Both the position numbers and the translations under genes were made by a program. Below the pieces are notes generated by a model. It saw only the letters and a program-made list of their open reading frames with translations, searched no databases and was not told the DNA's origin. Positions 8,721 through 64,000 of a stretch of DNA of 64,000 bases are shown one piece after another. Origin of the DNA: Trypanosoma brucei. Lineage: Eukaryota. The stretch is taken from positions 3,296,001 to 3,360,000 of the forward strand of contig CH464491.1 in assembly GCA_000002445.1 (NCBI GenBank), written 5' to 3'. The first letter of the stretch is position 1, and each line of letters starts with the position of its first letter.

Positions 8721-9078
8721 TTGTCGGTTGTCGATGTTGTGTCGTATTGGTACGCTCTACGTTATTTACAGTGGTTTTGCGCTGGTGTTTTGGCATAGGT
8801 GTTTCTGTTGCTTTCCATCGCGGACATCTGTGCATAGCCAAAAGGAACGTGTTGACGCTCGTTTGTTGATGCCATTTTTATTGTTGTGGGAGCTATGTTC
8901 CCTTCCACGACCGTGTGCGCCTGCGGGACTCGCTTTTCCCTTCACCCTGTTAACAAATTTCCTTTTCCAGCGCGAGGGCTCACGTGTCTCACGTTGGTTA
9001 CGCACAACACTGTAAAGGGAAGGGGTGTTTACCTCCTCCGTGCAGGAACCTGTGCAAAATTCTCAAGCAAACAAAGCG

Positions 9079-10260
9079 ATGGGTGCCAACAACATAAGGG
9101 AAGGGAGTGGTACCCCACGGGCCAAATCAAACGCGACGGAAAGTAAGGGCGGTGAAACAGTTTCAGAAGACCTGATTTCCGTGCTCCTCTGCGGGACGTG
9201 CAGGGCGCCTATCACGGACCATAACAACATTCTTGGGTGCCGTGAGGAATCCGTGTGGGCTCAGCAGGCCTTTGCGTACGAGGTAGATCTCTTTGCTGAT
9301 TGTCCGCCGCTGTGGTGCTACTCCGCTACCAACCCACAAGGCCGACGCTTTGACATCATACGCTGCACTGCGACTGCGGTAAATCGCTACCGCACGGTGA
9401 CACTGAGCGGACCGTGGTCGGGTGAACATTCCTTTTTCGTGGGTCACAAGTGGTGCTACGCTTCCTGCAATACATGTAGCAGCTTTTTGGGTTGGGCCTT
9501 CTGTAGGGCAAGTGAAGCCCTTAGCTTTAGTGGAGGTAGCACCGAGGACAATGATATCCAAATCGATGGGGGCGGTTGCGGCAGCAAAACCACTGATGAT
9601 GATGATGATAACGTGGATGAAGAAAGTATAGTCACCGTCGGGGGTAATAACAGCAACAATGTGAGCCTTCAAAGGGACGGGGCAAGTGATGATGACGGCA
9701 CTGTGGGTTTTGATCCCTCTGTTCTTTCCTTCCTCGGACTCATCGTGACTAACTGTGTGGGACGCAGCGGTTATTCGCTCAGACAGTACAATGAGCTGAT
9801 GAACGCGGACCCCCTTTTGCGACGGCGATTTGTAGGAAATTCACCGCTCGAAGACCTTCACAGTGGAGAGGACGGCAACTACTTCGTGTCGGCAACACAT
9901 TTTCTGGGACCATCCAGAGATGACCACAGCAGATTATTTGTTGGCATAGGCAGACATCGACAACTGCAGTCTTTCTTGGATGTTGTCCGAACATCTTTGC
10001 TGCCTGTTAACGCAGTCATTGGGACTGAAAGCCAGGATGGAGATGGGGAAACTTCCGAAGATGAAGCAAACAACTCGACGGCTCCCCGCACAAGCTCGCA
10101 CCGCAGTGACTCGAGCGGAGATGGTTCTGAAGATGGCGAAAATATGGGTACATCTCCGTCCTTCACTAACATTCCACCCCATTGTTTCGGCTGTGGGGAT
10201 ATGGCCGACTCCATCGATGAAGATGTTTCTTCAACTGAAGGCAGCGATAAGTCGGATTAG
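9079..10260 (+). CDS. Yippee/CULT-like zinc-binding domain protein with a Ser/Asp/Glu-rich C-terminal tail
   Basis: Track ORF starts at GTG 9025; first ATG is at 9079. Paired CxxC motifs (CGTCRAPITD ... CNTCSSFLGWAF) resemble the Yippee/Mis18/cereblon-CULT zinc site (compare CKNCNSKLGWIY in YPEL). Confidence 0.5.
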   Translation: MGANNIREGSGTPRAKSNATESKGGETVSEDLISVLLCGTCRAPITDHNNILGCREESVWAQQAFAYEVDLFADCPPLWCYSATNPQGRRFDIIRCTATAVNRYRTVTLSGPWSGEHSFFVGHKWCYASCNTCSSFLGWAFCRASEALSFSGGSTEDNDIQIDGGGCGSKTTDDDDDNVDEESIVTVGGNNSNNVSLQRDGASDDDGTVGFDPSVLSFLGLIVTNCVGRSGYSLRQYNELMNADPLLRRRFVGNSPLEDLHSGEDGNYFVSATHFLGPSRDDHSRLFVGIGRHRQLQSFLDVVRTSLLPVNAVIGTESQDGDGETSEDEANNSTAPRTSSHRSDSSGDGSEDGENMGTSPSFTNIPPHCFGCGDMADSIDEDVSSTEGSDKSD

Positions 10261-11580: not shown

Positions 11581-12342
11581 ATGGCCCAAAGCTTTGATGA
11601 CTGGCTGCAGAGTTTGAATCCCGTAACGAAAGGCGTGTTCGCCGCCGCAGTCCTCCTGACGGCAGCCATTTCCATGCATATTGCACCTTATACATACTTT
11701 ACTTTGGATACCTCTGCGATTATGGGGCTGCAATTGTGGCGACCTTTCACGGCTGCACTTTTCTTTGGTAAGTTCTCCTTCCCATGGTTAATTGCGATGG
11801 CAATGTTTGTTTCCTACCTCAAGTATAACGAGGAATACGACTACCAAGGGAAAACAGCAGATTTTGCGTGGATGCTTATTCTTGTTGTTATTGGACTGAC
11901 AGCAGGTGGGTTGTTGCTTGGGTTGCCCATCGTTAGTGGTGCTCTGCTAATGGCACTGTGCTGGGTTTTTTGTAAGCGTCACCCGCAGCTGCGCATGAAA
12001 TTGTATAGCTTCGAGTTCGATGCGAAGACGTTTCCATGGGTGTTGGCCCTGTTTCACTTTATTCTCGGTCAAAACATTCTTGAGGATGCGCTTGGTATCG
12101 TTGTGGGTCACCTCTTCTTTTTTCTTAACGATCTGATACCTTTGAAGCACGGAACAAACCCAATTGCGACACCCTCGTGGTTTGTGCGTCTCACAGGGCT
12201 TGAAAATGGCGGCGTGCGCTTTGGTGGCGTGCACGCGGGAGGACAGGCGTTTGCTGCTCGATTCGCGCGGCAACCACCACCAGCTGCCGCGGGCGGGCGG
12301 CCGCACCATTGGGGACCAGGTCACCGGCTTGGCACAACTTAA
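11581..12342 (+). CDS. Derlin (Der1-like ER-associated degradation protein)
   Basis: N-terminal DWLQSLNPVTKGVFAAAVLLTA and LQLWRPFTAALFFG match the Derlin/Der1 signature (WYxxxPxxTR, QxWRxxT). The C-terminal tail HHWGPGHRLG matches Derlin-1 HNWGQGFRLG. Four predicted TM segments. Confidence 0.8.
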   Translation: MAQSFDDWLQSLNPVTKGVFAAAVLLTAAISMHIAPYTYFTLDTSAIMGLQLWRPFTAALFFGKFSFPWLIAMAMFVSYLKYNEEYDYQGKTADFAWMLILVVIGLTAGGLLLGLPIVSGALLMALCWVFCKRHPQLRMKLYSFEFDAKTFPWVLALFHFILGQNILEDALGIVVGHLFFFLNDLIPLKHGTNPIATPSWFVRLTGLENGGVRFGGVHAGGQAFAARFARQPPPAAAGGRPHHWGPGHRLGTT

Positions 12343-12835
12343 CTGGACCCCCTCGCCTTCCCCCTCCTTTTTTCTTCCTCGCACGGGAACTGTGACTATT
12401 GTACATCCGTGTGGTTAGTGTTGGGAATTTCCTGGGTATCCAAGCAACGCATGAGGAAAGTGGTGTGGGAACAAAAATTTGTGGACAATTGCCCCAGCAA
12501 CAGCCCACTCAACACATCTGTTCCCTCTATGTTATCTTGCGCGGTTGCTTCGGGTCTTAAGTTGGAATCGTATCTCCTTCTTTTTGTTGGCGTTACAGCC
12601 CTTTACTCTGTGTTCCTTAAGAAAGCTCTGATTTTTTCTTTATTCTTCTCCCCAAATTGCAGTCTTGACTTACCTGGTGCAGGAAAAAAGTGGGAAGGTG
12701 CCAAAAGCAGTTGAGGGTACGGTTGAGTCAACGACAGTAATAGGGAAAGCAGTTCACTCCGCAGGCGTCCGTGACTACACGCGCTCGCTTCAAATCAACA
12801 GTTTTATTTAGTATCACAGTTGCCACCACGCACCG

Positions 12836-39600: not shown

Positions 39601-39694
39601 GCAGCCGTCTTGGGGATTGCTTTTGAGCGTAATCAAAATTGGAGGTGCACATTTCTTTGAACCTGTGTCTTTTCCTTTAACTGTTAATAGCAAG

Positions 39695-40957
39695 ATGGAG
39701 GGTTTGTGTGGGTGGTGGTGCATCCTATTTGTCGTAACAATCTCTCAAGCTGGTGAAGCACAAGAAAAACCAATTAACCGGGACGAGTTCGAAGCCCTGT
39801 GCAGGTTTATAAATCTCGCGGGAGACAGTGAGACACCAACGAAGGTTGAGAAAAATGTCAAGCGAACAGTGAAGAAAATTCTAACCGAAAGTGGGGTGGC
39901 CGATAGCAGGAAAAAGGAACTCGAAGATCTGCAAAAGCAAGCAGAGAAGTATCGAGAGGAAAACATGTCATTTTGGGAAACAGTAGGGATGGGGGAGATA
40001 AATAGGAGCTTGACGGACGCACTCTACGGGGAGAACCACAACGCCGTTGTTAAAGCACAAGGGAGTAGAGACCCCATCTGCGGCGCCAGAGAGGCGGACG
40101 CGGGTACGGAGGCAGGAAAGTCACTGGTGATCGACTTATTTTGCCTATGTTCCACATCGCCAGAACTTCACAACTTTCAGCAGATTTGCTGCGCCGACTG
40201 TCGAGGTGGAGCAAACGACCACCCCTGGATTCCTTCGGAAGATGGGAACCAGAGATGGAAGTTCCTTGCGCAAAAATGTGGAGAAACTAATCAAGGTGGA
40301 AAGCTCTCAACAGACTCCATTGAGAAGTCAGCCGAATTCTTTTTGAAAACATTGAAAAATCCCTTAGACTCAAGAGCGGAGGCACGCCGCACAGTGCTAG
40401 GAAGCACCAACGGCGATGTTAGCATTAATTGCAACGGTTGGAAAACTTCGGGAAACGGACGGTGCGTCAAATACGATCCAAACCACTTAAATGATGGGAT
40501 CCTGTCAATACCATGGTACGTAAAATTGGCGAAGGCAGCGACCCGAATGGATAAATTAATGGAAGCTGAAAAAACGTTGCGTGAGATTCTGGAAAATGTG
40601 GAGAAGTTGGAACGAAAGCAAGTCGCAATACCACCCAAACCTGCTGACGAGGGTAATGCCGTCCCGAGCGTCTCAAAAGACGTCGTAGAAAACAACAATG
40701 AAAATTCCGGCGTAAGTAATAATCGTGAGAAAAGAGAAAGCAAAGGTGAACTCAACGAAGAGAAATCACCAGGGAGTGAAAAGTCGCCGGAGGAAGTCGA
40801 CTGTGACGGCTGTAAACCCGAAGAAGGGTGTGAGGAGGGAAAATGTGAAAGCGAAAATGGGAGACACGACTCTGAAGGCACAAAAAGGCCACCTGTAAAG
40901 AGCCATTCTGCAACAATAATCGGTGGTTCGTTGAAGTTTTTCTTGCTTTTGGGATAA
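39695..40957 (+). CDS. VSG-like / GPI-anchored surface protein candidate (signal peptide, Cys-containing ectodomain, acidic Cys-rich C-terminal module, hydrophobic GPI-signal tail)
   Basis: Track ORF starts at TTG 39617; ATG is at 39695. N-terminal signal peptide MEGLCGWWCILFVVTISQAGEA. Helical region with an EFEALCRFINLAGD-type motif. C-terminal DCDGCKPEEGCEEGKCESENG followed by KS|HSATIIGGSLKFFLLLG, a 17-aa hydrophobic tail after Ser, as in trypanosome GPI-addition signals. Confidence 0.5.
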   Translation: MEGLCGWWCILFVVTISQAGEAQEKPINRDEFEALCRFINLAGDSETPTKVEKNVKRTVKKILTESGVADSRKKELEDLQKQAEKYREENMSFWETVGMGEINRSLTDALYGENHNAVVKAQGSRDPICGAREADAGTEAGKSLVIDLFCLCSTSPELHNFQQICCADCRGGANDHPWIPSEDGNQRWKFLAQKCGETNQGGKLSTDSIEKSAEFFLKTLKNPLDSRAEARRTVLGSTNGDVSINCNGWKTSGNGRCVKYDPNHLNDGILSIPWYVKLAKAATRMDKLMEAEKTLREILENVEKLERKQVAIPPKPADEGNAVPSVSKDVVENNNENSGVSNNREKRESKGELNEEKSPGSEKSPEEVDCDGCKPEEGCEEGKCESENGRHDSEGTKRPPVKSHSATIIGGSLKFFLLLG

Positions 40958-42579
40958 AGAGTTCTCCGTAAGCTTCAAAAGAATAAAAAGGTGGTGAAGG
41001 ACACAACTCCAGTCACACAAGCGTAAAAATATTAACCACTGTACCATTCCTGAGTTGTGTGATGGGAAATGAGTTCGCCAACCCAAAGTTTGGAACAAAA
41101 ATGGCCAACTATCGGGGAGGAGGGAGGCAGCGGGTACCACTGAACCATCTCCCTAGTCGCGGTGGTTCCCAGAATATTTTTTTGACGCGTAATGCGTAAG
41201 CCCTATATTATCACCGGAACTGAAAATTTGCTCGAAATATATTGATATTTTTGTTTTAAAGTGCAACGGAAACGAAACACGACAAGTACGTATTTTTATG
41301 AACGTCTAAAAGTTTATCAACTTCTCACATGCAAATTTACTCCCGAAAACAACTATATATAAAATGAAAGTAGTTGCAAATGCGCGAAGAATTTTCTTCT
41401 CCTGTCATCAATCACCGCCCCAAAGCGCCCGTTTAGTCCGTGGGAAAAGGGAGGAAACGTCCTTGCAAAAATAAAAAAACGCCGTGTTGAGACGGTATGA
41501 AATACAAGGGTGGAGAAAGGCCGCGTCCGTCCGCTAAACATCACCCGTTATTGCGGATTGCGTGTGACACTCTCAGGAAATGTTTTCGTGTCGGGAATGG
41601 GAACGCAGAACAACAACAGCACAGTTTCACAACCCCTGTCTTCTTTAAACGCCCGTATTATGTCAAAAAAAAAAAAAGACAGTACAACTGGAGCGCCGAT
41701 ACGCGTGACGTCGGGGGTAACTCTGTCTCTCTGTTTCGCGTAATCTTATCTTATTAGTGCCATCCGATCCGTGCCAGCAAGCCGCAACACTCATGTTGAT
41801 GGAATAACTCCGCCGCCGGCACACCGCCTTCTAAGAACCCGAAAAGGCGGTTTGGAAAATGGATGGTGGGAGGTTCCGCTCGAAGGTTATTTTATCAACA
41901 GCTGCAGCCCGGCAAACTTAACATGGCGTTGAATTAACGATAGCTGAGAAACTGCGCGACACTCTTCTCGAAACCAACGGACCGCTTCTTTCAGTCCCCT
42001 TCGTGTCATTTCATGAAACCCGTCTTGTCCAAATCCCCTCTCGGAATCTCACTGCTCTCCGTCGAAACAGATGGCGCGAAGCGATCAGAAGCCGGTGGTG
42101 GGATTCGGCCACACATCCGCCAAACCTGCCGATGTGATTCGAGTCTCGTTGGGAGGGGGAAGTCACATTATGCAGGTGGATTTGACCTTATATATCACAT
42201 TTTTCCTTCCCTTTCCTCACTGATGCTAGCACAGGGGGAACGTGGAGAGAAATGGGGAAATAATGGTGTGTACAAAGCTTATTTCCTTGCTTCAGACGAA
42301 GGTAGCGGGGGCCCGCGCAGAAGCTTACATGAAAGACGTCCCTGTCAGAACTGCTGGTGTTTCCAAAGGGAAGGAAAAGACAGACTAGTGAGGCACCCTC
42401 CGCCTGTAACGGCACAGTTTGGGAAATCTTAAAAAAAAACTCCCCCAGAGGGGGGAGGGGGAAGAAATATAGAGGGCCACACCCCCTGCCTCTGATACAA
42501 CATCGTTTCGTCATGACTCCTCCACATGTATGTGTTACACCTTTCATCAGCCTCACGGTGTTTCCGGCAGGGCGCATAT
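40958..42579. terminator. Convergent strand-switch region (cSSR) between PTU-A (+) and PTU-B (-); expected RNA pol II termination zone
   Basis: The last + gene ends at 40957 and the first - gene ends at 42580. No long ORF. Contains T- and A-runs and several short hairpins. Confidence 0.55.
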
Positions 42580-49259: not shown

Positions 49260-50093
49260 TTACTGCCTTCCCGTTGCATCACCACGACGGTGGCCTCCCC
49301 ATTGTTGGGGTTTCTGCTTCTTGGGGCAGTCACGGACCTCATGCCCCTCTTCTCCACAGAAAAAGCAGCACTTCCGCGCGGCACGTCCATCGCTCTGGAA
49401 GTACAACTGTTCTCCAGGTTCCTGGAGAGCCATCAGCAACCGCCGGAGCAAACCACTTTGCATACCCGGACAGTTAGGTGACAGATGCCCCGGATCAAAG
49501 CAACGGTAACATGTGGCATTTTTGTTGAAAGATGGATCGTCTGCCCGCTCGATCAGCATCCGCTGCCGCAGCCGCTCACTAACGTCATTACGGTTGTAAA
49601 GCTGCTGTACGGGGTGGCCCAAAGCACACTTCGGCCCCAACGGACAAAATCCTGTGAGGTAAAAGACACACGGTGGGCGGAAGACGTGCCGCAGCCGGCA
49701 CTTGGGACCTAATGGACAAAAACCTCGGCGGTAAGCGGCGCATTCCGGCTGCCGCTCCACCTGCACGACGTGCTGGAATGGACACTCCGGATTGGAACAT
49801 TCACCGAGACGCTGATAAAAGGCACATGCAGGGACATAACGATCGTCGTATTCATGCAAATATACACAATTTTCACCGTTCACGCAGGCGCCGCGAAGCC
49901 AATGCTTGCAGACCTCCAAACGCATGGACTTAAATTGGGAGAGAACATGCCGCTCAGGGCACGCCGCACCGTTTCGACACTTGCCATGTTGGAACGGCTG
50001 ACAAATTTCAGACCGCTTCGCCGTAGCGGGGGCCTCGACTGGAAGGGTATCCTCGAAGGCAAGTGACGTGTGGGCAGCGTTGTCAGTAAACAT
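49260..50093 (-). CDS. CPSF30: Cleavage and polyadenylation specificity factor 30-kDa subunit (CPSF30)-like CCCH zinc-finger protein
   Basis: Track ORF starts at TTG 50138; ATG is at 50093. Five tandem CX7-8CX4-5CX3H fingers (CQPFQHGKCRNGAACPERH, CKHWLRGACVNGENCVYLH, CAFYQRLGECSNPECPFQH, CAAYRRGFCPLGPKCRLRH, CVFYLTGFCPLGPKCALGH). Two CCHC zinc knuckles (CYRCFDPGHLSPNC, CFFCGEEGHEVRDC). Confidence 0.75.
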   Translation of the reverse strand: MFTDNAAHTSLAFEDTLPVEAPATAKRSEICQPFQHGKCRNGAACPERHVLSQFKSMRLEVCKHWLRGACVNGENCVYLHEYDDRYVPACAFYQRLGECSNPECPFQHVVQVERQPECAAYRRGFCPLGPKCRLRHVFRPPCVFYLTGFCPLGPKCALGHPVQQLYNRNDVSERLRQRMLIERADDPSFNKNATCYRCFDPGHLSPNCPGMQSGLLRRLLMALQEPGEQLYFQSDGRAARKCCFFCGEEGHEVRDCPKKQKPQQWGGHRRGDATGRQ

Positions 50094-50562
50094 GACGAAC
50101 CACCGTAACTGAATAAGGGTGATGCAGGGGATAATCAAGTGGTACCCCCTCCTGCTGCTTCCACCCTTTACCCTCTGCTACAAACTACTACTTTCGCTCA
50201 GGTGGAAAAGAGGAAAGGGTTGAAGGAAGAAACAATGCACAGTCCACGCGCACTGTCCACTCAACAGCAACCACATGCGAAAGAGATGGAGAAATAAGCA
50301 ACAGCGAGTTTAGAGGTGGGAATGTGAGAAATTAACGGAGGTTGTTCGAGCCTCCGCTGCGCAACTCTTTGCAGTTCCAGAGAAGTGAGTTCACAAACAG
50401 CGGCCAGCCGTGGTAGCGGGCAAACAGGAAGCGAATTAAAAAAAGAGCGAAAAAGCCAGATAATAGCAGAAGCACCCTCTACAACCACTTAAACGATGCC
50501 GGAAGCACACAACCGAACTCCACAAGCCCTCTGTTCTTTTTAAGAATGCACGACGATAAAAA

Positions 50563-52950: not shown

Positions 52951-55900
52951 TTAAAGGAGTCGAAGGTCCCGCCGCTTCATTTCACTGACCACAGTAAACT
53001 CCACATTCCACCTCGACCGAATCCACAAGGAAAGCAAAAAATGCGCCAAGTCGTCATTAAGGGTTAACTGGCGCGAGGTGTAGCCACGCACTGCAGGTCG
53101 ACCATACTCGTCGGCGTAAGGACCCGCTAGAACAACAACTTGAGACCTTCTAGTTTCGAGCACGTATATACGATTGTCTTCGGGACTCATGTAAACACCA
53201 AGGCCACTGCCACACGAGAGGGCATGAATGTAAAGCTCCGGTGGCCTTTGTGATGGTCTCAAGCAAAAGAGTTTGCCACAGAAGCAGCACAGGAGACGAT
53301 TCCCTTCTGTATCGCCACACATGCTACAAGGTTCATTGGGGTTGAGGCTGAGGAGTAATTGGGCGTGGGCATCAGGAAGGTGCAACACACGATTCATTAA
53401 GAACCGCTTCCACAATAAGGCCCCTTCATACACAACACCCAACGGTTTGAAACGAGGCGCGTCATCAAGAAGAGACACGTCGCGGCAACGGTGCAGTAAA
53501 CTAAGCGGGGTTCCTTTGATCATCTTCTCATTCCCTTCCGAGACCGCTTTGTGAATTAGCGAGACCAAGGCCTCCGAGGCTTTTGTATGTCCCCACTCGC
53601 AGTTTTGAAGCGGTTTCTGCAACAAATAGCACAACATGGTGAAAACAGCTTGGCTCTGACCCTCCAACGTTGCAAGCTCTTCCGACTGAAACGGAATGAA
53701 TACAACCTTATCGTCACCGATCTGTACCACCTCAGATGGTGTATTGTCGGTCAGCAACGCCTTGAGAAGCGTAAGGCACCCCAACTCACGCCATACAGAC
53801 ATAAGAAGTCCACTGTGAGCGCCTTGGCCATCATCGTCGACGGGCCCCGAGGTGAGGGCAGAGCAATCACTCGAATGCAGTAAGAGTGTCGTGTACTGAG
53901 CCACGTACTCTGCCGCGTCTGAGGGATGCAGTAGTGCATTTAGAATAAGTACGCAAAAATTATCATCAACATCGTGACAGGAAAGTTCCGCACAAGCATG
54001 GGAAATAGTCCCTTCAAGTAATATTGGCTCCAGTGATATCATGAGGGAGAGGAGGGTGAGCAGCTCATTGTACAGCACAGCACCTCCAACCTTCACCCAC
54101 TCGAGCGCTACGCACATTTGCGCACGAACACTTCGAGCAACCTCGACAACCTCTCGAATGTTCTTATTTTCGTCCCGCGGTTGCTTCCGCACACTCCGCG
54201 ATTCATTCCCGCTGCCATCACAGGAAGAATTGGTAACAGCTACGCTAGAAATGTCACACCACAAACTCTGCAGTGCACCTCGGGCGGCCTCGTCAGAGCT
54301 GACAGCACGTAACGAACTCTCCCGTACCATCTCAAACAGGGAAGATGCCTCTCCCGTCGCCACATTCGCAGGTGGCACGGGGCACGGGCAGAGCGTGGTG
54401 CAAACCATGAGGCACATTGGACAGCTGAAATCGTTGCGAGTAACCGCTGCAGGCAACCGGTCCATGTCTGGCGTGTTTTGCAAAGTGGAGGCCATTCGAC
54501 CAAATATCCTCTTCACACAACTCATGTGGGCGGCATGTCCACAGAGGTAAAAATGAGTGCTTAGCTTGCGCTTTTGAGGTTGTTGCTGGTGGGAGTCGAC
54601 CCCTGTGTCGTCAAATCGAAGGCGGTCAAGCACATCAGACACAGAAACGTTTCCGAAAAGAGCAAGCGATCCCCTCGCATGATCCCGGCATATGCAACAA
54701 TCCATGCTTCGGATACGCTGCAGTATTGGGTTGGCCACCGAAGAATGGCTGCCACCTTCACACACAGAAGGTTTCACACCCGGTGCAGGTGCGTCTTGTG
54801 TTGCATAAAAGCCAAACCTCGAAGGATCAGAGAGCATGGCAAAACTTTTCTTCGCGTTAATCGCTTTCATACGCTTCAAAAGCGCTGACTGCTTCCCCTT
54901 GACGTCCGGTCGGCAGCACTCACCCTCTCCACGCTGCGACTCCCCAACCGCTGGCTTGTCTGCCCCAACCGAAAGGGAAGGTTCACTCATGCCTTGAAGT
55001 ATAAACTCTACCATTCCAACAATACCAAATATATCCTTCGTTACCTCACGGAAACGGGTGCGTAGTTTGCGTAGCGCATCCACTGTTGTAGTCGCGGACG
55101 CTGTCGACACCGGTGAACGGCCCGCCCCAAAAACTAAATCCGCTTCCACAGGAACTTCAAGGGCTTCCTTAAGGTTCCTCGCGTTGAGAAGACCTTCCAC
55201 ACCGAGCAGCTGGTTGAGTTGTTGCGGAGCGTGTATCGGTGGGGATGAATTTTTTTTATGAAACTTACCAACCGCATCCCAATCCACCACAGTAGCAGCA
55301 GATCCACCTGACGCACCAGCACCAATGATTGTGCATGCCCTCATTGCAAGGTACAGCAAAGAGATGGCATGCGCCAACGTAATGATACTTACCGTCCCCT
55401 CAGACCCCGAACAGCCCTCCAGCCCGTCAAACATGTATCCGTGAACTGCACGTATGGCAACGCTAAGCACACAAGGATCCTGTAGCAGTAGAAACACCTT
55501 GTCACGGAATACGGCGGCACGACGAGCCTCCCACGACCCTTCCTCAGGCCGCTCAGTCACTTCAACCCATCGTATGTTAGGTGGAGGGAACACCGCCGGT
55601 GCATCGTTAGAGTCTCCCTCCCCCCCACTGTCGGTTCCCATCCGCTTCCTCCGCACTAAACGGTCGTAGAGATCGCACATATCAGGTAAATGGTGGTCCC
55701 GAAGTGATGGATGATAAAGGTTTATGTACGACCGCCACGTGCAAACATCCTTGAACTGAACCACCGCCCTCTTCCGGCTTTTCACTGTCGTGGTCACTTC
55801 TCTAAAAATTAATGGAAGCAATTCATCAAGGTTGATGCCGGGTAAAGCATGTTCCAACTCACTGGCTACCCTCTCCAGGTCGTCAAGGGAGTGACCGCGG

Positions 55901-58446
55901 TCCCCTGCAATGACGTGCAGTAACCGCCGTTTCAATGCGAAGACTAAATCAGCCTTATTATTAATTAGTAAACTGCAGTCCTGTACACAAAGTGTGAGGA
56001 CAAGCCTCAAAAAGCCGGTGTAACCCAACGCACGATTCTCCTTAGAGAACATGAACCGATTCAGCAACTGAGCTGCAAACGTCTCTGTGGGGACCAAAAG
56101 CATAAGCAGTTGCATCATGCACACGTCTGCTTCGATCATGAGTGTACTGCAAGCAACGTAACACTCGCAACGCCTTGACAACTCAAAGCGCTCACCATGC
56201 CAAAGACCTTGCTCATGTTGGCAGAGCAGGACCAATGGCATGAGAAGCTCATCAATCCAATAATCTGCCCTCGCTTCTGTTTCCGCAAACAACTCCGAAA
56301 GAAGAGAGACGAATGACCCCTGTTCAACTTCCGCCCCGCTTTCTTCAATTCGCTTTTGTACCTTCATCCACGACTTCACTATTTCTGCGAAGAATCGCAT
56401 GTGCGGAAGCACAAACGATGTTGGATTAGGTGATTTTTTATCTAGCAAGTCATATCGTTCCAGTAGTGGCTTCCCATCTGCGTCCACAGAAATTACTTCC
56501 TTTGGGGAAAACCCGCCCCGCTTTTCTTGGAGAAGGGCGTTAATGGCCACCATACACTCTCTCATTAGCTCACGCATGTACTCTCGACAAGTTACGTTAC
56601 ACCCAACCCCACCGCCTCCGACCAACAGTGCTGATCCACCCTGTACGGAAAACCCTTCAAGCATGTCACGACGCTTGCTGCTCTCAACAGCGGGGTCCAA
56701 TGCACCACACCACGAGGAAGACGAAAGACTTTCCAACAGGCGGGGCGGAATTAACAACTCGCCCGCGTGCAACGACACCGCTACGTCGCGGGCCATATTC
56801 GCTATACGGTGAAACATTTGCTGCAGCTCTAACTCTATATTCATAGCACAGTCCGTTTCCACACTGCCCCCGTCTGACTCGCCCACTGATGTCCTTCGAA
56901 ACACCATACTAGCACTCCCATTAATCGTGAGTAACCTGCACCAGCCGCGATAAAGTTGGCGCGACACAACGATTGCACAAGTGTTCTGTGTCACACACAA
57001 CACTTCTGTCATCCACCTACAACACCTGACTGCCCTCGAGACCTCTTGTGGGGAAGCGTTTCTCACATTCATGGTCTCACAACTGCAATACAACAGGCAA
57101 GAGATAAGCCGATGAAGAATTGTTTCTCCCTTGAGCACACTTTCCCACTTTGGATGTGGCTCCCGCAGTAAAAGGCTGTCCACAACATCACTGGATGTAA
57201 AGACCTGAACGCTGAGCGTTGCAACATGTAACTCCCTCCTCGTGGCGCCTCGTTCCCCGTACTTTAAAAGAAGCTCCGCAAAGGGGACGCGGATCAGCGG
57301 GTCACAGAGGGTGTTGTTGAATAACCAAAGAATAGAGCGTTCCCAAATGGAAAAACGGGATAACTTGGGGATTTCAAACCCATATAAAAATAATTCTTCC
57401 ATGCAAGAAAGGTGACGCATCTCCTCCAGCCTTTTTCCATCCGCTACGCACTCAACACGCCGGGATACGAGCGCCTTCTCCATAAGGCTATGGCACAGCA
57501 CACGTCGGGGTCCGTCACCACTGGCCGAAAGAAGCAGTGCAATGTCAGCTATCCGACGAAGTGCTCGATCAAACCACTGCATCCTTGCCAATTGATCATC
57601 ACTACTGTTACTATTGCATTGGTATTCCGCCTGTGCGCCAACAATCGTCGTAATGTATAGTACAAGACCACGCGACAACACCTCAAGCCACTGTCGCTTA
57701 GTACAGTCCATATCGGCAGCAGGATCCGCCGAACTCTGAAATCCCCTATGTCGTGTGCAAAAAGAAGCAGTTTTCCACGCAGACGGGTCACCACAGTCAC
57801 ACATACCCCCACCAATCAAGCACTGCCGCACGACATAATTATGATTAATGCATGGAGAACTCTTGAAACAGTCACTACACATCACACACGAACAATCTGA
57901 GGCGCAATCCTTGCAAAACACAAGTATTTCCCCAGGTTGAAAAGAACGACCGCAAACACGAAACCCCGTCTCCTCTCGTATCATTTTTTCTCCTTCTTCA
58001 TCAACAGTGAGACCCAGCCACCACTCCACCATTGGCAGAGCATTGCTGGTGCACTTCCATGCAGCAGGGGAACTATATTTGGTTCTCTCCTCCATCAACA
58101 TTTCAAGTCCCGCGTTGACAGTATCACCCAGCTTTTGGGGGTATTGCCTGAGCAACGTAGCAGCTCCTGGAGGAACGCGGCACCTCAGAAGAATTTTTGG
58201 ATCAGTTTCCAGAACATTTTCCAGAGGCACTAACCCCGACGCGTCACCACCCATATGATAGAAACGATCAAGATCATCCCTGACTGCACGCACCAACAGC
58301 AAACGTTCCTCCTTCCCAACGGTATGACTTTCCCACTCCATACCAGTGAAAATTTCATGAAGCTGCAGGTACTCCAAAAGGGTTCCAGAAGTCCACTTCC
58401 TCGGATCCATCGGATTCTGCACAGATGCAAAGCCTGACAACGCCAT
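52951..58446 (-). CDS. UBR-box E3 ubiquitin ligase (N-recognin/UBR1-like), ~1831 aa
   Basis: Track ORF starts inside a polypyrimidine tract; ATG is at 58446 (MALSGFASVQ). UBR-type zinc finger VFCKDCASDCSCVMCSDCFKSSPCINHNYVVRQCLIGGGMCDCGDPSAWKTASFCTRH. C-terminal Cys/His-rich RING-like segments (CCICRDH..., CPMCLMVC...). Confidence 0.8.
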   Translation of the reverse strand: MALSGFASVQNPMDPRKWTSGTLLEYLQLHEIFTGMEWESHTVGKEERLLLVRAVRDDLDRFYHMGGDASGLVPLENVLETDPKILLRCRVPPGAATLLRQYPQKLGDTVNAGLEMLMEERTKYSSPAAWKCTSNALPMVEWWLGLTVDEEGEKMIREETGFRVCGRSFQPGEILVFCKDCASDCSCVMCSDCFKSSPCINHNYVVRQCLIGGGMCDCGDPSAWKTASFCTRHRGFQSSADPAADMDCTKRQWLEVLSRGLVLYITTIVGAQAEYQCNSNSSDDQLARMQWFDRALRRIADIALLLSASGDGPRRVLCHSLMEKALVSRRVECVADGKRLEEMRHLSCMEELFLYGFEIPKLSRFSIWERSILWLFNNTLCDPLIRVPFAELLLKYGERGATRRELHVATLSVQVFTSSDVVDSLLLREPHPKWESVLKGETILHRLISCLLYCSCETMNVRNASPQEVSRAVRCCRWMTEVLCVTQNTCAIVVSRQLYRGWCRLLTINGSASMVFRRTSVGESDGGSVETDCAMNIELELQQMFHRIANMARDVAVSLHAGELLIPPRLLESLSSSSWCGALDPAVESSKRRDMLEGFSVQGGSALLVGGGGVGCNVTCREYMRELMRECMVAINALLQEKRGGFSPKEVISVDADGKPLLERYDLLDKKSPNPTSFVLPHMRFFAEIVKSWMKVQKRIEESGAEVEQGSFVSLLSELFAETEARADYWIDELLMPLVLLCQHEQGLWHGERFELSRRCECYVACSTLMIEADVCMMQLLMLLVPTETFAAQLLNRFMFSKENRALGYTGFLRLVLTLCVQDCSLLINNKADLVFALKRRLLHVIAGDRGHSLDDLERVASELEHALPGINLDELLPLIFREVTTTVKSRKRAVVQFKDVCTWRSYINLYHPSLRDHHLPDMCDLYDRLVRRKRMGTDSGGEGDSNDAPAVFPPPNIRWVEVTERPEEGSWEARRAAVFRDKVFLLLQDPCVLSVAIRAVHGYMFDGLEGCSGSEGTVSIITLAHAISLLYLAMRACTIIGAGASGGSAATVVDWDAVGKFHKKNSSPPIHAPQQLNQLLGVEGLLNARNLKEALEVPVEADLVFGAGRSPVSTASATTTVDALRKLRTRFREVTKDIFGIVGMVEFILQGMSEPSLSVGADKPAVGESQRGEGECCRPDVKGKQSALLKRMKAINAKKSFAMLSDPSRFGFYATQDAPAPGVKPSVCEGGSHSSVANPILQRIRSMDCCICRDHARGSLALFGNVSVSDVLDRLRFDDTGVDSHQQQPQKRKLSTHFYLCGHAAHMSCVKRIFGRMASTLQNTPDMDRLPAAVTRNDFSCPMCLMVCTTLCPCPVPPANVATGEASSLFEMVRESSLRAVSSDEAARGALQSLWCDISSVAVTNSSCDGSGNESRSVRKQPRDENKNIREVVEVARSVRAQMCVALEWVKVGGAVLYNELLTLLSLMISLEPILLEGTISHACAELSCHDVDDNFCVLILNALLHPSDAAEYVAQYTTLLLHSSDCSALTSGPVDDDGQGAHSGLLMSVWRELGCLTLLKALLTDNTPSEVVQIGDDKVVFIPFQSEELATLEGQSQAVFTMLCYLLQKPLQNCEWGHTKASEALVSLIHKAVSEGNEKMIKGTPLSLLHRCRDVSLLDDAPRFKPLGVVYEGALLWKRFLMNRVLHLPDAHAQLLLSLNPNEPCSMCGDTEGNRLLCCFCGKLFCLRPSQRPPELYIHALSCGSGLGVYMSPEDNRIYVLETRRSQVVVLAGPYADEYGRPAVRGYTSRQLTLNDDLAHFLLSLWIRSRWNVEFTVVSEMKRRDLRLL

Positions 58447-58620: not shown

Positions 58621-59346
58621 CCCAATAGCCCCCTACAACTCATAACCACCTTAAAATAACGAAACGAAACAGTGGAAAGAAGTGGACATCCCAACCAACG
58701 CGCACAATACATTGCCATCGTGTAACTATCAGCACAAAAAGGGTAGTCGCAATAATTGCAACCGTCCCTCCACTATGGCATTACGAAATGGAAAAACTAA
58801 AACAAGTCAAAGGGAAAAACAATGGGAACCTGACAGGTGCAAAAGTGCAAAATGGTATGCCTCTTACACATTTCCCTTTCACCACCCTCACACATAGAAA
58901 CTGCCATCAAGCATAGCGTGTAAATATTTGTCAGGTGAGGGCACTCTAAGCACTAATATTGAAATCAATTGTCCACCAAAGGTAAAAAGACAAGAAAGGC
59001 ATTTACTAAAGCGGACACATTCTCTCCCATCTATATCTATTTACATAGGTGTATATCTATTTCCGGATTTACCCACGTTCGTACTTCCGTACGCACGCAG
59101 GTTCTCGTGTATGCCTATGTACGATTCTATGTGTTTGCATGCAGGCGTATGGAGGCATACGTGCTGCTGCCCACAAGCTCATTTCCTTGTTATGATATCT
59201 GTTAAAAACAACAGCCAGTACTCCAAGGAGGTGCAGTCGCTGACCTTACCAGAGTAACAGATATCTAACTCAATGAAAGTAAAGGGCATCAGCCCCATAC
59301 TTCACAGTTCCCCTTACATACGGGCACGCACCAACGATAACATCCC

Positions 59347-60150
59347 CTAGAAATCTGCGTCCAGAGAGAAAACCTTTGACGACCTTTCGGAACTCATCAC
59401 ACCAGCCTTCTGATACTCACCAACCTTCTTCTCGAAAAAGTTAGTTTTCCCCTGAAGAGAAATCATATCCATGAAGTCAAATGGGTTCTTCGAGTTGTAA
59501 TGACGGTCGTACCCCAAGGACACCAGGAGCCGATCGGCGACAAACTCAATGTACTGAGTCATCAGCTGAGAATTCATTCCAATTAAGCGGACAGGTAATG
59601 CATCGCAAATGAACTCTCGTTCAATTGATACTGCATTGCATATAATTTCAAGCACACGATCCCTCGGCAGCTTGTTTACGATATACTTCTCGTATAATAG
59701 GCAAGCAAAGTCAGTGTGCAGACCCTCATCACGTGAAATCAGCTCGTGCTGAAGGTGAGCCCGGGCATCAAGCCACGCTTCTTTAGCCAAAAAATGGNNN
59801 NNNNNNNNNNNNNNNNNNNNNNNNNNNNNNNNNNNNNNNNNNNNNNNNNNNNNNNNNNNNNNNNNNNNNNNNNNNNNNNNNNNNNNNNNNNNNNNNNCGC
59901 TTGCCGCGAAGAAAGCCAACACATGTTTGATGAAGTGTCGCTCGCCGTCGTCCAGCTTCTCCCAATCCGTCATGTCATTCCCAAGGTCGATTTCCTCCAC
60001 CGTCCAGATACTGCTCTCCGCCTCCTTGTACTTCTGCCATATGTCAGGGTACTTGATAGGGAAGATAACGTAGCGGTCGGGGTTTTCTGTCAGAAGTGGC
60101 TCCTCCACCTCCCCTTCCTTACGCGAGCGCTTGTGAGATTTGGGTGGCAT
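59347..60150 (-). CDS. RNR2: Ribonucleotide reductase small subunit (R2), array copy 1, interrupted by an assembly gap and a local frameshift
   Basis: Start and end are identical to copies 2 and 3 ([17 protein letters not shown] ... FSLDADF). A 100-N run at 59798-59897 sits inside the ORF. A 1-nt deletion relative to the other copies lies just 3' of the gap on the coding strand. Confidence 0.5.
59798..59897. other. Assembly gap (100 N placeholder)
   Basis: Run of 100 n characters. This unit is ~190 bp shorter than the neighbouring units, so the true gap is about 285-290 bp. Confidence 0.95.
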
Positions 60151-60952
60151 CGTTAGCACTGTCCTTGTTTTTCTTCTCTTGATGTGTTTTCAATATACGA
60201 CAGAGCAGCTAATGGAATGAATGAAGAGAAAGCTTGCACACAAGAGGCATATTGAGTAGTGAAGTAGCGAAACAGTGGAAAGAAGTGGACATCCCAACCA
60301 ACGCGCACAATACATTGCCATCGTGTAACTATCAGCACAAAAAGGGTAGTCGCAATAATTGCAACCGTCCCTCCACTATGGCATTACCAAATGGAAAAAC
60401 TAAAACAAGTCAAAGGGAAAAACAATGGGAACCTGACAGGTACAAAAGTGCAAAATGGTATGCCTCTTACACATTTCCCTTTCACCACCCTCACACATAG
60501 AAACTGTCATCAAGCATAGCGTGTAAATATTTGTCAGGTGAGGGCACTCTAAGCACTAATATTGAAACCAATTGTCCACCAAAGGTAAAAAGACAAGAAG
60601 AAAGGCATCTACTAAAGCGGACACATTCTCTCCCATCTATATCTATTTACATAGGTATATATCTATTTCCGGATTTACCCACGTTCGTACTTCCGTACGC
60701 ACGCAGGTTCTCGTGTATGCCTATGTACGATTCTATGTGTTTGCATGCAGGCGTATGGAGGCATACGTGCTGCTGCCCACAAGCTCATTTCCTTGTTATG
60801 ATATTTGTTAAAAACAACAGCCAGTACTCCAAGGAGGTGCAGTCGCTGACCTTACCAGAGTAACAGATATCTAACTCAATGAAAGTAAAGGGCATCAGCC
60901 CCATACTTTACAGTTCCCCTCACATACGGGCACGCACCAACGATAACATCCC

Positions 60953-61966
60953 CTAGAAATCTGCGTCCAGAGAGAAAACCTTTGACGACCTTTCGGAACT
61001 CATCACACCAGCCTTCTGATACTCACCAACCTTCTTCTCGAAAAAGTTAGTTTTCCCCTGAAGAGAAATCATATCCATGAAGTCAAATGGGTTCTTCGAG
61101 TTGCAATGACGGTCGTACCCCAAGGACACCAGGAGCCGATCGGCGACAAACTCAATGTACTGAGTCATCAGCTGAGAATTCATTCCAATTAAGCGGACAG
61201 GTAATGCATCGCAAATGAACTCTCGCTCAATTGATACTGCATTGCATATAATTTCAAGCACACGATCCCTCGGCAGCTTGTTTACGATATACTTCTCGTA
61301 TAATAGGCAAGCAAAGTCAGTGTGCAGACCCTCATCACGTGAAATCAGCTCGTTGCTGAAGGTGAGCCCGGGCATCAAGCCACGCTTCTTTAACCAAAAA
61401 ATGGCGCAGAACGAGCCAGAGAAAAATATGCCTTCGACAGCCGCAAACGCGACGAGCCGCGTAGGGAACGAAGTCTGACTGCCAATCCATTCAATCGCCC
61501 ATTTGGCCTTTTTCTCAATACACGGAATCGTCCTTATGGCATGTAGCAGTCGTTGCTTTTCGTCGGGATCCACAACATACGTATCGATCAACACGGAGTA
61601 TGTCTCACAATGGATATTTTCCATAGCAATCTGGAACCCATAGAAACATCGAACTTCAGGTACCTGCACTTCGCACATGAACCGTTCCGCAAGGTTCTCC
61701 AGCACAATGCCATCGCTTGCCGCGAAGAAAGCCAACACATGTTTGATGAAGTGTCGCTCGCCGTCGTCCAGCTTCTCCCAATCTGTCATGTCATTCCCAA
61801 GGTCGATTTCCTCCACCGTCCAGATGCTGCTCTCCGCCTCCTTGTACTTCTGCCATATGTCAGGGTACTTGATAGGGAAGATAACGTAGCGGTCGGGGTT
61901 TTCTGTCAGAAGTGGCTCCTCCACCTCCCCTTCCTTACGCGAGCGCTTGTGAGATTTGGGTGGCAT
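60953..61966 (-). CDS. RNR2: Ribonucleotide reductase small subunit (R2), array copy 2 (337 aa)
   Basis: Track ORF starts at GTG 61975; ATG is at 61966. R2 hallmarks are present: [29 protein letters not shown] (Fe ligands E/H), [18 protein letters not shown], conserved C-terminal Tyr in VGEYQKAG, and R1-binding tail FSLDADF. Confidence 0.9.
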
Positions 61967-62743
61967 CGTTAGCACTGTCCTTGTTTCTCTTCTCTTGATG
62001 TGTTTTCAATATACGACAGAGCAGCTAATGGAATGAATGAAGAGAAAGCTTGCACACAAGAGGCATATTGAGTAGTGAAGTAGCGAAACAGTGGAAAGAA
62101 GTGGACATCCCAACCAACGCGCACAATACATTGCCATCGTGTAACTATCAGCACAAAAAGGGTAGTCGCAATAATTGCAACCGTCCCTCCACTATGGCAT
62201 TACGAAATGGAAAAACTAAAACAAGTCAAAGGGAAAAACAATGGGAACCTGACAGGTGCAAAAGTGCAAAATGGTATGCCTCTTACACATTTCCCTTTCA
62301 CCACCCTCACACATAGAAACTGCCATCAAGCATAGCGTGTAAATATTTGTCAGGTGAGGGCACTCTAAGCACTAATATTGAAATCAATTGTCCACCAAAG
62401 GTAAAAAGAAAAAAATACACCCGATAAACAAGTGTCTTACTCCAGACATTAAAATCATCAAATGATATTAGCTATCTCACATGTAACAAGCGCACAGGTT
62501 CTCGTGTATGCCTATGTACGATTCTATGTGTTTGCATGCAGGCGTATGGAGGCATACGTGCTGCTGCCCACAAGCTCATTTCCTTGTTATGATATCTGTT
62601 AAAAACAACAGCCAGTACTCCAAGGAGGTGCAGTCGCTGACCTTACCAGAGTAACAGATATCTAACTCAATGAAAGTAAAGGGCATCAGCCCCATACTTC
62701 ACAGTTCCCCTTACATACGGGCACGCACCAACGATAACATCCC

Positions 62744-63757
62744 CTAGAAATCTGCGTCCAGAGAGAAAACCTTTGACGACCTTTCGGAACTCATCACACC
62801 AGCCTTCTGATACTCACCAACCTTCTTCTCGAAAAAGTTAGTTTTCCCCTGAAGAGAAATCATATCCATGAAGTCAAATGGGTTCTTCGAGTTGTAATGA
62901 CGGTCGTACCCCAAGGACACCAGGAGCCGATCGGCGACAAACTCAATGTACTGAGTCATCAGCTGAGAATTCATTCCAATTAAGCGGACAGGTAATGCAT
63001 CGCAAATGAACTCTCGCTCAATTGATACTGCATTGCATATAATTTCAAGCACACGATCCCTCGGCAGCTTGTTTACGATATACTTCTCGTATAATAGGCA
63101 AGCAAAGTCAGTGTGCAGACCCTCATCACGTGAAATCAGCTCGTTGCTGAAGGTGAGCCCGGGCATCAAGCCACGCTTCTTTAACCAAAAAATGGCGCAG
63201 AACGAGCCAGAGAAAAATATGCCTTCGACAGCCGCAAACGCGACGAGCCGCGTAGGGAACGAAGTCTGACTGCCAATCCATTCAATCGCCCATTTGGCCT
63301 TTTTCTCAATACACGGAATCGTCCTTATGGCATGTAGCAGTCGTTGCTTTTCGTCGGGATCCACAACATACGTATCGATCAACACGGAGTATGTCTCAGA
63401 ATGGATATTTTCCATAGCAATCTGGAACCCATAGAAACATCGAACTTCAGGTACCTGCACTTCGCACATGAACCGTTCCGCAAGGTTCTCCAGCACAATG
63501 CCATCGCTTGCCGCGAAGAAAGCCAACACATGTTTGATGAAGTGTCGCTCGCCGTCGTCCAGCTTCTCCCAATCTGTCATGTCATTCCCAAGGTCGATTT
63601 CCTCCACCGTCCAGATGCTGCTCTCCGCCTCCTTGTACTTCTGCCATATGTCAGGGTACTTGATAGGGAAGATAACGTAGCGGTCGGGGTTTTCTGTCAG
63701 AAGTGGCTCCTCCACCTCCCCTTCCTTACGCGAGCGCTTGTGAGATTTGGGTGGCAT
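62744..63757 (-). CDS. RNR2: Ribonucleotide reductase small subunit (R2), array copy 3 (337 aa)
   Basis: Same as copy 2. It differs at two codons (ENIHSE versus ENIHCE in copy 2; DRHYNS versus DRHCNS). Confidence 0.9.
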
Positions 63758-64000
63758 CGTTAGCACTGTCCTTGTTTTTCTTCTCTTGATGTGTTTTCAA
63801 TATACGACAGAGCAGCTAATGGAATGAATGAAGAGAAAGCTTGCACACAAGAGGCATATTGAGTAGTGAAGTAGCGAAACAGTGGAAAGAAGTGGACATC
63901 CCAACCAACGCGCACAATACATTGCCATCGTGTAACTATCAGCACAAAAAGGGTAGTCGCAATAATTGCAACCGTCCCTCCACTATGGCATTACCAAATG

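Follow-up and report, generated by a model that had tools for sequence, protein, structure and literature searches.

Structure and sequence variation of the ribonucleotide reductase R2 tandem array on chromosome 11 of Trypanosoma brucei brucei TREU927

Dosage arrays of Trypanosoma brucei, such as those of tubulin, histones, PFR, and S-adenosylmethionine synthetase, consist of head-to-tail units of CDS plus intergenic sequence in a polycistron, and the array of ribonucleotide reductase (RNR) R2 genes is built alike (Jackson 2007). Both also show concerted evolution and, at an array end, a divergent copy. The R2 array, listed as "x1" with a Ds of 0.0101 and a Dn of 0.0126, has been described from T. 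brucei as well as T. b. gambiense and is tabulated as restricted to Trypanozoon (Jackson 2007; PMC1855330). With 3 to at least 5 units it is a short array, and it is not invariant: its Dn is at least as large as its Ds, whereas typical T. brucei arrays have a Ds greater than their Dn (Jackson 2007).

The encoded protein has six metal ligands, a radical tyrosine, W/D/Y radical-transfer residues, and a C-terminal R1-binding heptapeptide in common with mouse and human RRM2 (PDB 1h0n, 1w68, and 2uw2). Its N-terminus is shorter (337 vs. 390 aa), and it is encoded by multiple copies, whereas RRM2 is a single cell-cycle-regulated gene. Multiple R2 genes per genome also occur in yeast (Rnr2/Rnr4; PDB 1jk0) and apicomplexans (R2e2; PMC3824934), but as old, divergent paralogues in which ligands were lost, whereas the T. 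brucei copies are at least 96% identical (99–100% except for the 5'-most) and keep every ligand. Recombinant T. brucei R2 shows iron loading, a tyrosyl radical, and activity with R1, according to citing accounts of Hofer et al. 1997 (PMC3267527, PMC10208901). RNR belongs to the few enzymes in nucleotide metabolism of T. brucei that are fully essential, and it is a drug target (PMC10208901). Therefore, the number of R2 copies and their true sequences matter, and they bear on knock-outs, RNAi, CRISPR design, and proteomics databases.

The R2 genes analyzed here are at the end of the window, the whole stretch of 64,000 nucleotides under study. The proteins of copies 2 and 3 agree exactly with EAN80228 and EAN80229 of TREU927, respectively, which identifies the region as the 3' half of the R2 (RNR2) tandem array on T. 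brucei brucei TREU927 chromosome 11. The literature gives RNR2 as Tb927.11.12780 (PMC8259959). Compared with the known array (Tb927.11.12780 and its neighbours, EAN80228–EAN80231, the "x1" array), the locus and flanking genes are the same and there is no substantial difference. EAN80230 and EAN80231 are two more consecutive R2 copies in GenBank and belong to the same 8-member cluster as EAN80228 and EAN80229. The 5' half of the array is beyond the window and was examined as proteins only. Both the array and its sequence variation are already annotated and published in the TREU927 reference, and the locus presents no new biology; a 2026 preprint on the T. brucei pangenome does not mention RNR or tandem arrays. 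Overall, the best explanation, and one we consider very probable, is a constitutive R2 array with a junction of single origin, a dosage function, and canonical proteins, in which two cysteine changes may be either errors or variants.

Units, junction, and gap

The array spans positions 58665–64000 as head-to-tail units, each with a minus-strand R2 ORF (table 1). Bounds of units are from our own MAFFT alignment and a direct-repeat search; the repeats found by the latter start 1603, 1816, and 1791 nt apart and are 98–100% identical. With a period limit of 500, Tandem Repeats Finder missed the array, whose unit measures 1.8 kb. The sequence-only reading of three near-identical head-to-tail genes holds for the unit structure but not for copy 1, which is gapped and frameshifted. 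That the array continues past the window edge, also claimed there, is borne out by the partial unit 4 and by EAN80230 and EAN80231 in GenBank. Scans of the whole window for tRNA genes and Rfam families found nothing.

Table 1. Features of the R2 array and its flank, in window coordinates
Feature	Position	Strand	Remarks
Downstream flanking gene (1831 aa)	52951..58446	-	UBR-box and PRT6_C domains; same neighbour in DAL972 and IVM-t1
Unit 1	58665..60267	-	3'-most in direction of transcription; abuts UBR-box gene; 1603 nt as assembled
R2 copy 1 CDS, including stop	59347..60150	-	broken by gap and frameshift; Tyr288 kept
Run of exactly 100 N	59798..59897		assembly/scaffold gap inside array
Unit 2	60268..62083	-	1816 nt; type B
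R2 copy 2 CDS	60953..61966	-	337 aa + stop; exact match to EAN80228.1 / XP_829340.1 / UniRef100_Q382Q3; S120C, Y288C
Codon 288 of copy 2	61103..61105	-	Y288C, TAC>TGC; Tyr (TAC) in 12 other units covering site
Codon 120 of copy 2	61607..61609	-	S120C, TCT>TGT; Ser (TCT) in 11 other DNA units covering site
Junction filler between units, 13 nt	62071..62083	-	CTACTTCACTACT; repeats at 60255-60267 and 63862-63874
Unit 3	62084..63874	-	1791 nt; type A, like unit 1
Alternative ~90-nt block in unit 3	62407..62496	-	starts about 250 nt past stop codon
R2 copy 3 CDS	62744..63757	-	exact match to EAN80229.1
Unit 4	63875..64000	-	first 126 nt (3' end in coding sense); 99% identity; cut by window end

The run of N replaces about 314 nt of copy 1 (codons ~85–189), which accounts for the short unit 1 and removes D85, E116, H119, S120, and Y123. 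Alignment of units shows that copy 1, beside the gap, lacks 1 nt near 59746 and is mismatched at 59786. In the GenBank cluster, this copy next to the UBR gene is not represented by a distinct protein entry preceding EAN80228. An earlier caution that the repeat may be imperfectly assembled was well founded, as the N gap and a low-quality edge lie inside the array. The practical message is one of data quality: the reference array holds a gap and a frameshifted copy.

Most of the non-coding differences of unit 2 from units 1 and 3 are common to units of IVM-t1, DAL972, or OVI. Only one site of unit 4 is informative, and there it carries the variant of unit 2. Units of TREU927 alternate A-B-A-(B), a pattern that simple concerted evolution does not predict. 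The ~90-nt block of unit 3 takes the place of an unrelated ~110-nt block of units 1 and 2. It is also present in the 5'-most unit of DAL972 and therefore represents a real second type of intergenic or 3'UTR sequence. Inversion of the unit 1/2 block was considered and rejected: the two blocks are dissimilar in both orientations, and the ~90-nt block occurs once in the window.

The array is not an assembly duplication, because the same 13-nt junction is present in T. b. gambiense DAL972 and T. equiperdum IVM-t1. Across these three unselected lineages, the junction is identical but for one base in DAL972, and its filler is absent from both flanks of the array. The 3' boundary (...CCACTGTTTCG followed directly by TTTCGTTATTTTAAGG) recurs unchanged in DAL972 and almost unchanged in IVM-t1. 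The 5' boundary, which is beyond the window in TREU927, matches between DAL972 and IVM-t1, and arrays of the latter two are syntenic, both located between the ACBP and UBR genes. The shared junction and flanks indicate that the array predates the divergence of the three lineages and is chromosomal and constitutive. A further sign that the array is real comes from an independent read set, in which Logan contig L004 (ERR034315) crosses a unit junction, running from unit positions 34–1791 into 1–63 of the next unit.

Assembled counts range from 3 to at least 5 units, and none is firm, since the arrays of TREU927 and DAL972 are gapped. DAL972 has 4 units and, likewise, a 100-N gap; IVM-t1 has 3 units and no N. 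The IVM-t1 assembly derives from about 7,500 PacBio reads plus MiSeq (PMC6395869), and given PacBio coverage of only ~7,500 reads we rejected its 3-unit count as a decisive long-read count. In line with concerted evolution, all or nearly all units of DAL972 have the substitutions at cds93, 534, 1083, 1256, 1527, and 1630, and all or nearly all units of IVM-t1 have those at cds734, 1058, 1435, and 1554.

Proposed origin and dosage function

A single ancestral duplication probably created the unique 13-nt junction, after which unequal crossing-over and gene conversion probably expanded the array and partly homogenized it. All units are predicted to be in one minus-strand polycistronic transcription unit, running from the ACBP gene through the R2 array to the UBR gene. 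The one-strand polycistronic setting proposed earlier for this kinetoplastid array agrees with the ORFs: from 42580 to the window end, all those of 200 aa or more that fall entirely inside this interval are minus-strand. Every unit appears to carry its own pyrimidine-rich region for inter-mRNA processing, so each extra unit should raise the level of R2 mRNA. On the standard model of such arrays, which explains them by gene dosage (PMC1855330), we infer a dosage effect here, on an essential enzyme's radical-generating subunit.

The order of units in TREU927 could also reflect a chimeric assembly, in which units of the two homologues of a heterozygous diploid were interleaved (units 1 and 3 of type A, units 2 and 4 of type B). 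The alternation A, B, A, with B again at the one informative site of unit 4, speaks for interleaving, as does the internal homogeneity of the DAL972 and IVM-t1 arrays at those sites. The 100-N gap and the degraded edge mark an unfinished array, and other assemblies have just 3–4 units. However, duplication of a two-unit A-B block gives an equal alternation, the type of unit 4 depends on one site, and units of DAL972 are heterogeneous too (G_a differs from G_b-d). We regard a chimera as possible but rather unlikely. If it did occur, the consensus of at least 5 copies is inflated, and copy-specific differences, possibly including both cysteines, are allelic and not paralogous.

R2 proteins and the substitutions in copy 2

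The true ATG is 3 codons inside the listed GTG start and gives a protein of 337 aa. Copy 3 is identical in protein sequence to CBH18309 of DAL972 and SCU68989 of T. equiperdum and is the consensus Trypanozoon R2. Copies 2 and 3 match Pfam Ribonuc_red_sm (PF00268) over profile positions 1–281 of 281, with 364.2 and 374.2 bits, respectively (gathering cut-off of 33.6 bits). In an alignment to mouse R2 (1h0n; E 3e-148), D85, E116, H119, E178, E212, and H215 correspond to the di-iron ligands D139, E170, H173, E233, E267, and H270. The six ligands are invariant in 10 of 10 aligned Trypanozoon sequences, with the first three of copy 1 falling in the N gap. The radical tyrosine Y123 (mouse Y177), conserved in 147 of 148 relatives, and the radical-transfer residues W49, D211, and Y316 (mouse W103, D266, and Y370) are present, and the R1-binding C-terminal tail is FSLDADF, compared with FTLDADF in mouse. 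The complete set of metal ligands, together with the radical tyrosine, transfer residues, and R1-binding tail, marks the predicted proteins of copies 2 and 3 as canonical class Ia R2.

Exactly two codons differ between copies 2 and 3. Among 14 DNA units (12 covering codon 120 and 13 covering codon 288) and 8 distinct Trypanozoon R2 proteins, S120C and Y288C are found in copy 2 of TREU927 alone. The two non-synonymous changes had been described as private to copy 2. Both are confirmed relative to copy 3, but a comparison with copy 1 is limited to Y288 because the gap removes codon 120.

Residue 120 directly follows H119, the counterpart of the mouse iron ligand H173, as had been read from the sequence; Cys120 thereby adjoins the ligand in the same helix as the Y123 radical. 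The sequence-only reading had placed weight on this change and treated Tyr to Cys as the lesser of the two, and conservation reverses their order. Across 150 diverse R2 representatives, the column for residue 120 is variable (S80 A23 G14 N13 Q12 T4 P1 C1), and adjacency to the ligand therefore matters little. The column for residue 288, conversely, is aromatic in 132 of 135 relatives, making Y288C the more disruptive change. The two together cost 10 bits against the PF00268 profile.

Other differences of unit 2, at cds -20, 1046, 1058, 1162, 1374, 1435, 1500, and 1554, recur in other strains. Unit 2 is therefore a genuine haplotype and not noise. Three further non-synonymous variants, R8C, E43K, and S245L, are each found in two independent sources. 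The CDS singletons of unit 2 are both non-synonymous, and the 4 CDS variants present in at least 2 assemblies are synonymous (Fisher-type probability ~0.08; the numbers are too small for significance). Neighbouring unit 1 contains the N gap and frameshifted edge. By sequence alone, the cysteine changes are indistinguishable from sequencing errors in this visibly unfinished stretch of the assembly. Base-call or consensus errors and rare, probably slightly deleterious variants in a redundant copy are about equally probable sources, and nothing points to a new function. Until confirmed by reads, Q382Q3, with its two unique substitutions, is unsuitable as "the" T. brucei R2 sequence.

Functional divergence and drug selection

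Copy 2 could instead be a real, expressed isoform in which Cys120 and Cys288 alter cofactor assembly, radical stability, redox sensitivity, or the formation of heterodimers. Its carrier is a genuine haplotype, other non-synonymous paralogue variants of the array are independently corroborated, and Jackson reports Dn at least equal to Ds for the R2 array. Yet the two variants are in one database sequence only and yield no statistical signal of selection. Cysteine at position 120 is a mild change where S/A/G/N/Q/T are tolerated, and Y288C loses an aromatic residue kept in 98% of relatives and appears damaging, not adaptive. Copy 2 also has the lower PF00268 score. Functional divergence is thus improbable. 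The more specific proposal, that EAN80228 gives homo- or heterodimers in which cofactor assembly, the lifetime of the radical, or thiol/redox (trypanothione, arsenical) sensitivity differs, is very doubtful; were it true, it would represent early subfunctionalization of R2 within a dosage array.

Cultured Leishmania and mammalian cells are known to become resistant to hydroxyurea by amplifying R2, with amplicons induced in selected lines. Such amplicons and the constitutive array both add R2 copies, but the array is inherited and chromosomal, with one junction in three subspecies. Drug-selected amplicons are expected in selected lines only and with independent junctions, and the array has neither property. 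Selection by drug or stress for hydroxyurea tolerance, as suggested from the sequence, is therefore extremely improbable: the same junction and flanks are in isolates of T. b. brucei, T. b. gambiense, and T. equiperdum, and use of hydroxyurea on T. brucei has been confined to experimental tests (PMC10208901). The literature was also searched for R2 amplification driven by hydroxyurea in Leishmania, and nothing of direct use turned up.

Among paralogues of the array, it is the 5'-most copy, beyond the window, that diverges most clearly (EAN80231 in TREU927 and CBH18310 in DAL972).

Array layout and conservation across lineages

The R2 (ribonucleotide reductase small subunit) genes lie in direct repeats of 98–100% identity whose starts are 1603, 1816 and 1791 nt apart; unit borders were defined by aligning the repeats against each other. 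In every unit, the R2 ORF is on the minus strand and encodes 337 aa from the biological ATG, which is three codons further in than the GTG start reported by the ORF lister (bacterial code). Alignment of units U1 to U4, the last reaching the window end, bears out the head-to-tail array proposed in the sequence-only reading and its continuation past the window edge. Of the three near-identical genes counted there, copies 2 and 3 (in U2 and U3) are intact, but copy 1 is gapped and frameshifted. The 1603-nt length of U1 reflects a run of exactly 100 N that stands in for about 314 nt (~codons 85–189), and directly ahead of this gap are a 1-nt deletion and a mismatch. The gap and deletion therefore leave copy 1 untranslatable as assembled and the array visibly unfinished.

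The R2 array is already known, being annotated and published for the T. brucei brucei reference strain TREU927, and RNR2 is Tb927.11.12780 in the literature (PMC8259959). Exact-sequence look-up identified copy 2 as EAN80228.1 (XP_829340.1) and copy 3 as EAN80229.1, both TREU927 proteins from a 5.26-Mb contig. The 90% cluster of R2 has only eight distinct sequences; other members are TREU927 EAN80230 (next gene beyond the window, with S245L) and EAN80231 (second gene beyond the window, with clustered N-terminal changes), three DAL972 proteins, T. equiperdum proteins and two 1997 clones (O15910 and CAA71741). One gapped unit and four annotated ones put the reference assembly at five units or more.

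At the syntenic loci, L001 of T. b. gambiense DAL972 and L006 of T. equiperdum IVM-t1, R2 genes lie between an ACBP-domain gene and the same 1831-aa UBR-box gene that borders the array in the window. The DAL972 array has four units, one broken by a 100-N gap, and that of IVM-t1 has three without N. The 5' flank ends in AGCACTTAGAAAG where the first unit begins with CAATATGCC, every internal junction reads CCACTGTTTCG, CTACTTCACTACT, CAATATGCC, and the last unit passes from CCACTGTTTCG into the 3' flank at TTTCGTTATTTTAAGG. The 5' boundary was observed in DAL972 and IVM-t1 only, because the window ends short of the 5' array end of TREU927. In the boundary comparison of the three strains, the 13-nt junction filler is absent from both array flanks; it is identical across the strains except for one DAL972 base. 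This points to one founding duplication that would predate the split of the Trypanozoon lineages, after which unequal exchange would have expanded and contracted the array.

An assembly duplication is contradicted by the same junction in DAL972 and IVM-t1 and by L004, an independent short-read contig (ERR034315) that crosses one unit and extends 63 nt into the following one, supporting the existence of the head-to-tail order in real DNA. None of the assemblies gives a copy number that can be relied on: there are gaps in TREU927 and DAL972, the array being unfinished in both reference genomes, and IVM-t1 is thinly covered, its assembly built from only ~7,500 PacBio reads plus MiSeq (PMC6395869). 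In DAL972, the ~290 nt after the gap are only 91% identical, show many C>T differences and appear to be low-quality sequence. Two of the three IVM-t1 R2 copies are frame-broken by single-base indels (the annotation gives one as a 278-aa protein and omits the other); the indels are more likely to be long-read errors left uncorrected than marks of pseudogenes.

Coordinates of the R2 array, its neighbors and related stretches in syntenic loci
Feature	Sequence	Position	Strand	Remark
R2 direct repeats	window	58665 to window end		
U1	window	58665–60267		gapped
100-N run in U1	window	59798–59897		
U2	window	60268–62083		
U3	window	62084–63874		
Block in U3	window	62407–62496		~90 nt
U4	window	63875–64000		first 126 nt only
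UBR-box gene	window	52951–58446		1831 aa; array flank
CCCH zinc-finger ORF	window	49260–50138	minus	292 aa
Convergent strand-switch region	window	40958–42579		
VSG_B ORF	window	39617–40957	plus	446 aa; last plus-strand ORF
Repeat-bearing ORF	window	4152–6506	plus	784 aa; family unassigned
132-nt repeats	window	5738–6529	plus	about six, tandem, in frame (44 aa)
Gap and divergent stretch	L001 (DAL972)	9059–9447		
Frame-broken R2 copies	L006 (IVM-t1)	8186–9198; 11811–12823		

Sequence types among units

We aligned 14 units from five sources, with positions counted relative to the R2 CDS. All or nearly all DAL972 units share substitutions at cds93, 534, 1083, 1256, 1527 and 1630, and all or nearly all IVM-t1 units share those at cds734 (S245L), 1058, 1435 and 1554. 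Such sharing among the units of one genome is the signature of concerted evolution. Units of TREU927 are heterogeneous: U1 resembles U3 (type A), U2 (type B) differs at about ten sites, and U4 has the B state at its single visible informative site. Differences of U2 at cds-20, 1046, 1058, 1162, 1374, 1435, 1500 and 1554 are common to IVM-t1, DAL972 or OVI units; since most recur in other strains, U2 is a genuine sequence type and not noise. Only three bases are found in U2 alone among all aligned units: cds359 (S120C), cds863 (Y288C) and the non-coding cds1289. U2 has T at cds1289 and G at cds-20.

U3 also has a block, starting about 250 nt past the stop, with no similarity to the ~110-nt block of U1 and U2 at that location; sequence comparison rejected an inversion of the latter. 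The 5'-most DAL972 unit carries the same, rarer block, and there are therefore two real intergenic/3'UTR types. Located ~250–350 nt past the R2 stop, they could give R2 mRNAs two different 3'UTRs.

The clearest divergence among paralogues is in the 5'-most R2 copy, beyond the window. E43K, E53N and D55Y are common to EAN80231 of TREU927 and CBH18310 of DAL972, with further N-terminal changes in TREU927, and E43K is also present in CAA71741. Across the wider R2 family, Lys is the residue most often found at position 43, so the 5'-most copy may keep the older state.

R2 identity and the two cysteines of copy 2

Copies 2 and 3 match the Pfam Ribonuc_red_sm profile over its whole length (364 and 374 bits, respectively) and both align to mouse R2 (1h0n; E = 3e-148). 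In this alignment, the iron ligand H119 corresponds to mouse H173, the following residue S120 to S174, and the tyrosyl radical Y123 to Y177. The other ligands (D85, E116, E178, E212 and H215), the radical-transfer residues (W49, D211 and Y316) and the R1-binding tail (FSLDADF; FTLDADF in mouse) are present as well. With all of these features of mouse R2 matched, copies 2 and 3 are canonical class Ia R2.

Copies 2 and 3 differ in only two codons, 120 and 288. Codon 120 is TGT (Cys) in copy 2 and TCT (Ser) in copy 3, and falls inside the gap in copy 1; codon 288 is TGC (Cys) in copy 2 and TAC (Tyr) in copy 3, and copy 1 also has Tyr there. Both changes, which jointly cost 10 bits on the Pfam profile, are non-synonymous and private to copy 2 among aligned units covering them, as had been read from the sequence. 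Copy 3 was scored against 1.84 billion representatives and the best 150 were aligned. Among these, position 120 has S in 80, A in 23, G in 14, N in 13, Q in 12, T in 4, and P and C in one each; the site varies among small or polar residues, making Ser to Cys mild. Thus, while S120 does directly follow H119, the adjacency emphasized in the sequence-only reading has little weight. At position 288, 132 of 135 relatives have an aromatic residue (Y in 102, F in 22, W in 8; another residue in 3), and mouse has Phe. Tyr to Cys is the more disruptive of the two changes.

Sequence error and real variation are about equally probable sources of these cysteines. Consistent with error, both are confined to one deposited sequence (the copy 2 protein is the single-member entry UniRef100_Q382Q3) from an array with a gap and a degraded edge. 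Moreover, both CDS singletons of U2 are non-synonymous, whereas all four CDS variants that recur in more than one assembly are synonymous, a contrast that is not significant (about 0.08). Conversely, U2 is a corroborated haplotype, the comparison draws on a small panel of narrow phylogenetic range (gambiense and equiperdum), and the non-synonymous, copy-specific R8C, E43K and S245L each occur in two independent sources, all consistent with a real variant. Under either explanation, we saw no evidence of adaptive divergence of copy 2.

Transcription and neighboring features

Genes in the window lie on the plus strand as far as 40957; from 42580 on, they lie on the minus strand, and this minus-strand run therefore places the array within one polycistron, ACBP to R2 × n to UBR. 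Every 777–802-nt spacer has pyrimidine-rich stretches and then, some 60 nt ahead of the ATG, an AG; these are putative processing signals, of the kind required for trans-splicing and coupled polyadenylation. In the general model of trypanosomatid arrays, each unit yields one more mature mRNA per transcription pass (PMC1855330), and each R2 unit would likewise add one mature R2 mRNA per pass. Selection by hydroxyurea, suggested earlier, is disfavored because three lineages carry the array constitutively, with one shared junction.

The strand switch was called from ORFs of at least 200 aa, excluding those nested in a larger opposite-strand ORF. No tRNA or Rfam RNA genes were found in this region or elsewhere in the 64-kb window. 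The ORF with a trypanosomal VSG_B domain (PF13206, E 7.7e-46) is a chromosome-internal VSG-related gene abutting the switch. Three genes downstream of the array, an ORF matching CCCH zinc-finger and zinc-knuckle domains probably encodes an RNA-binding protein. Far from the array, the 132-nt repeat copies are 65–94% identical to the reference copy.
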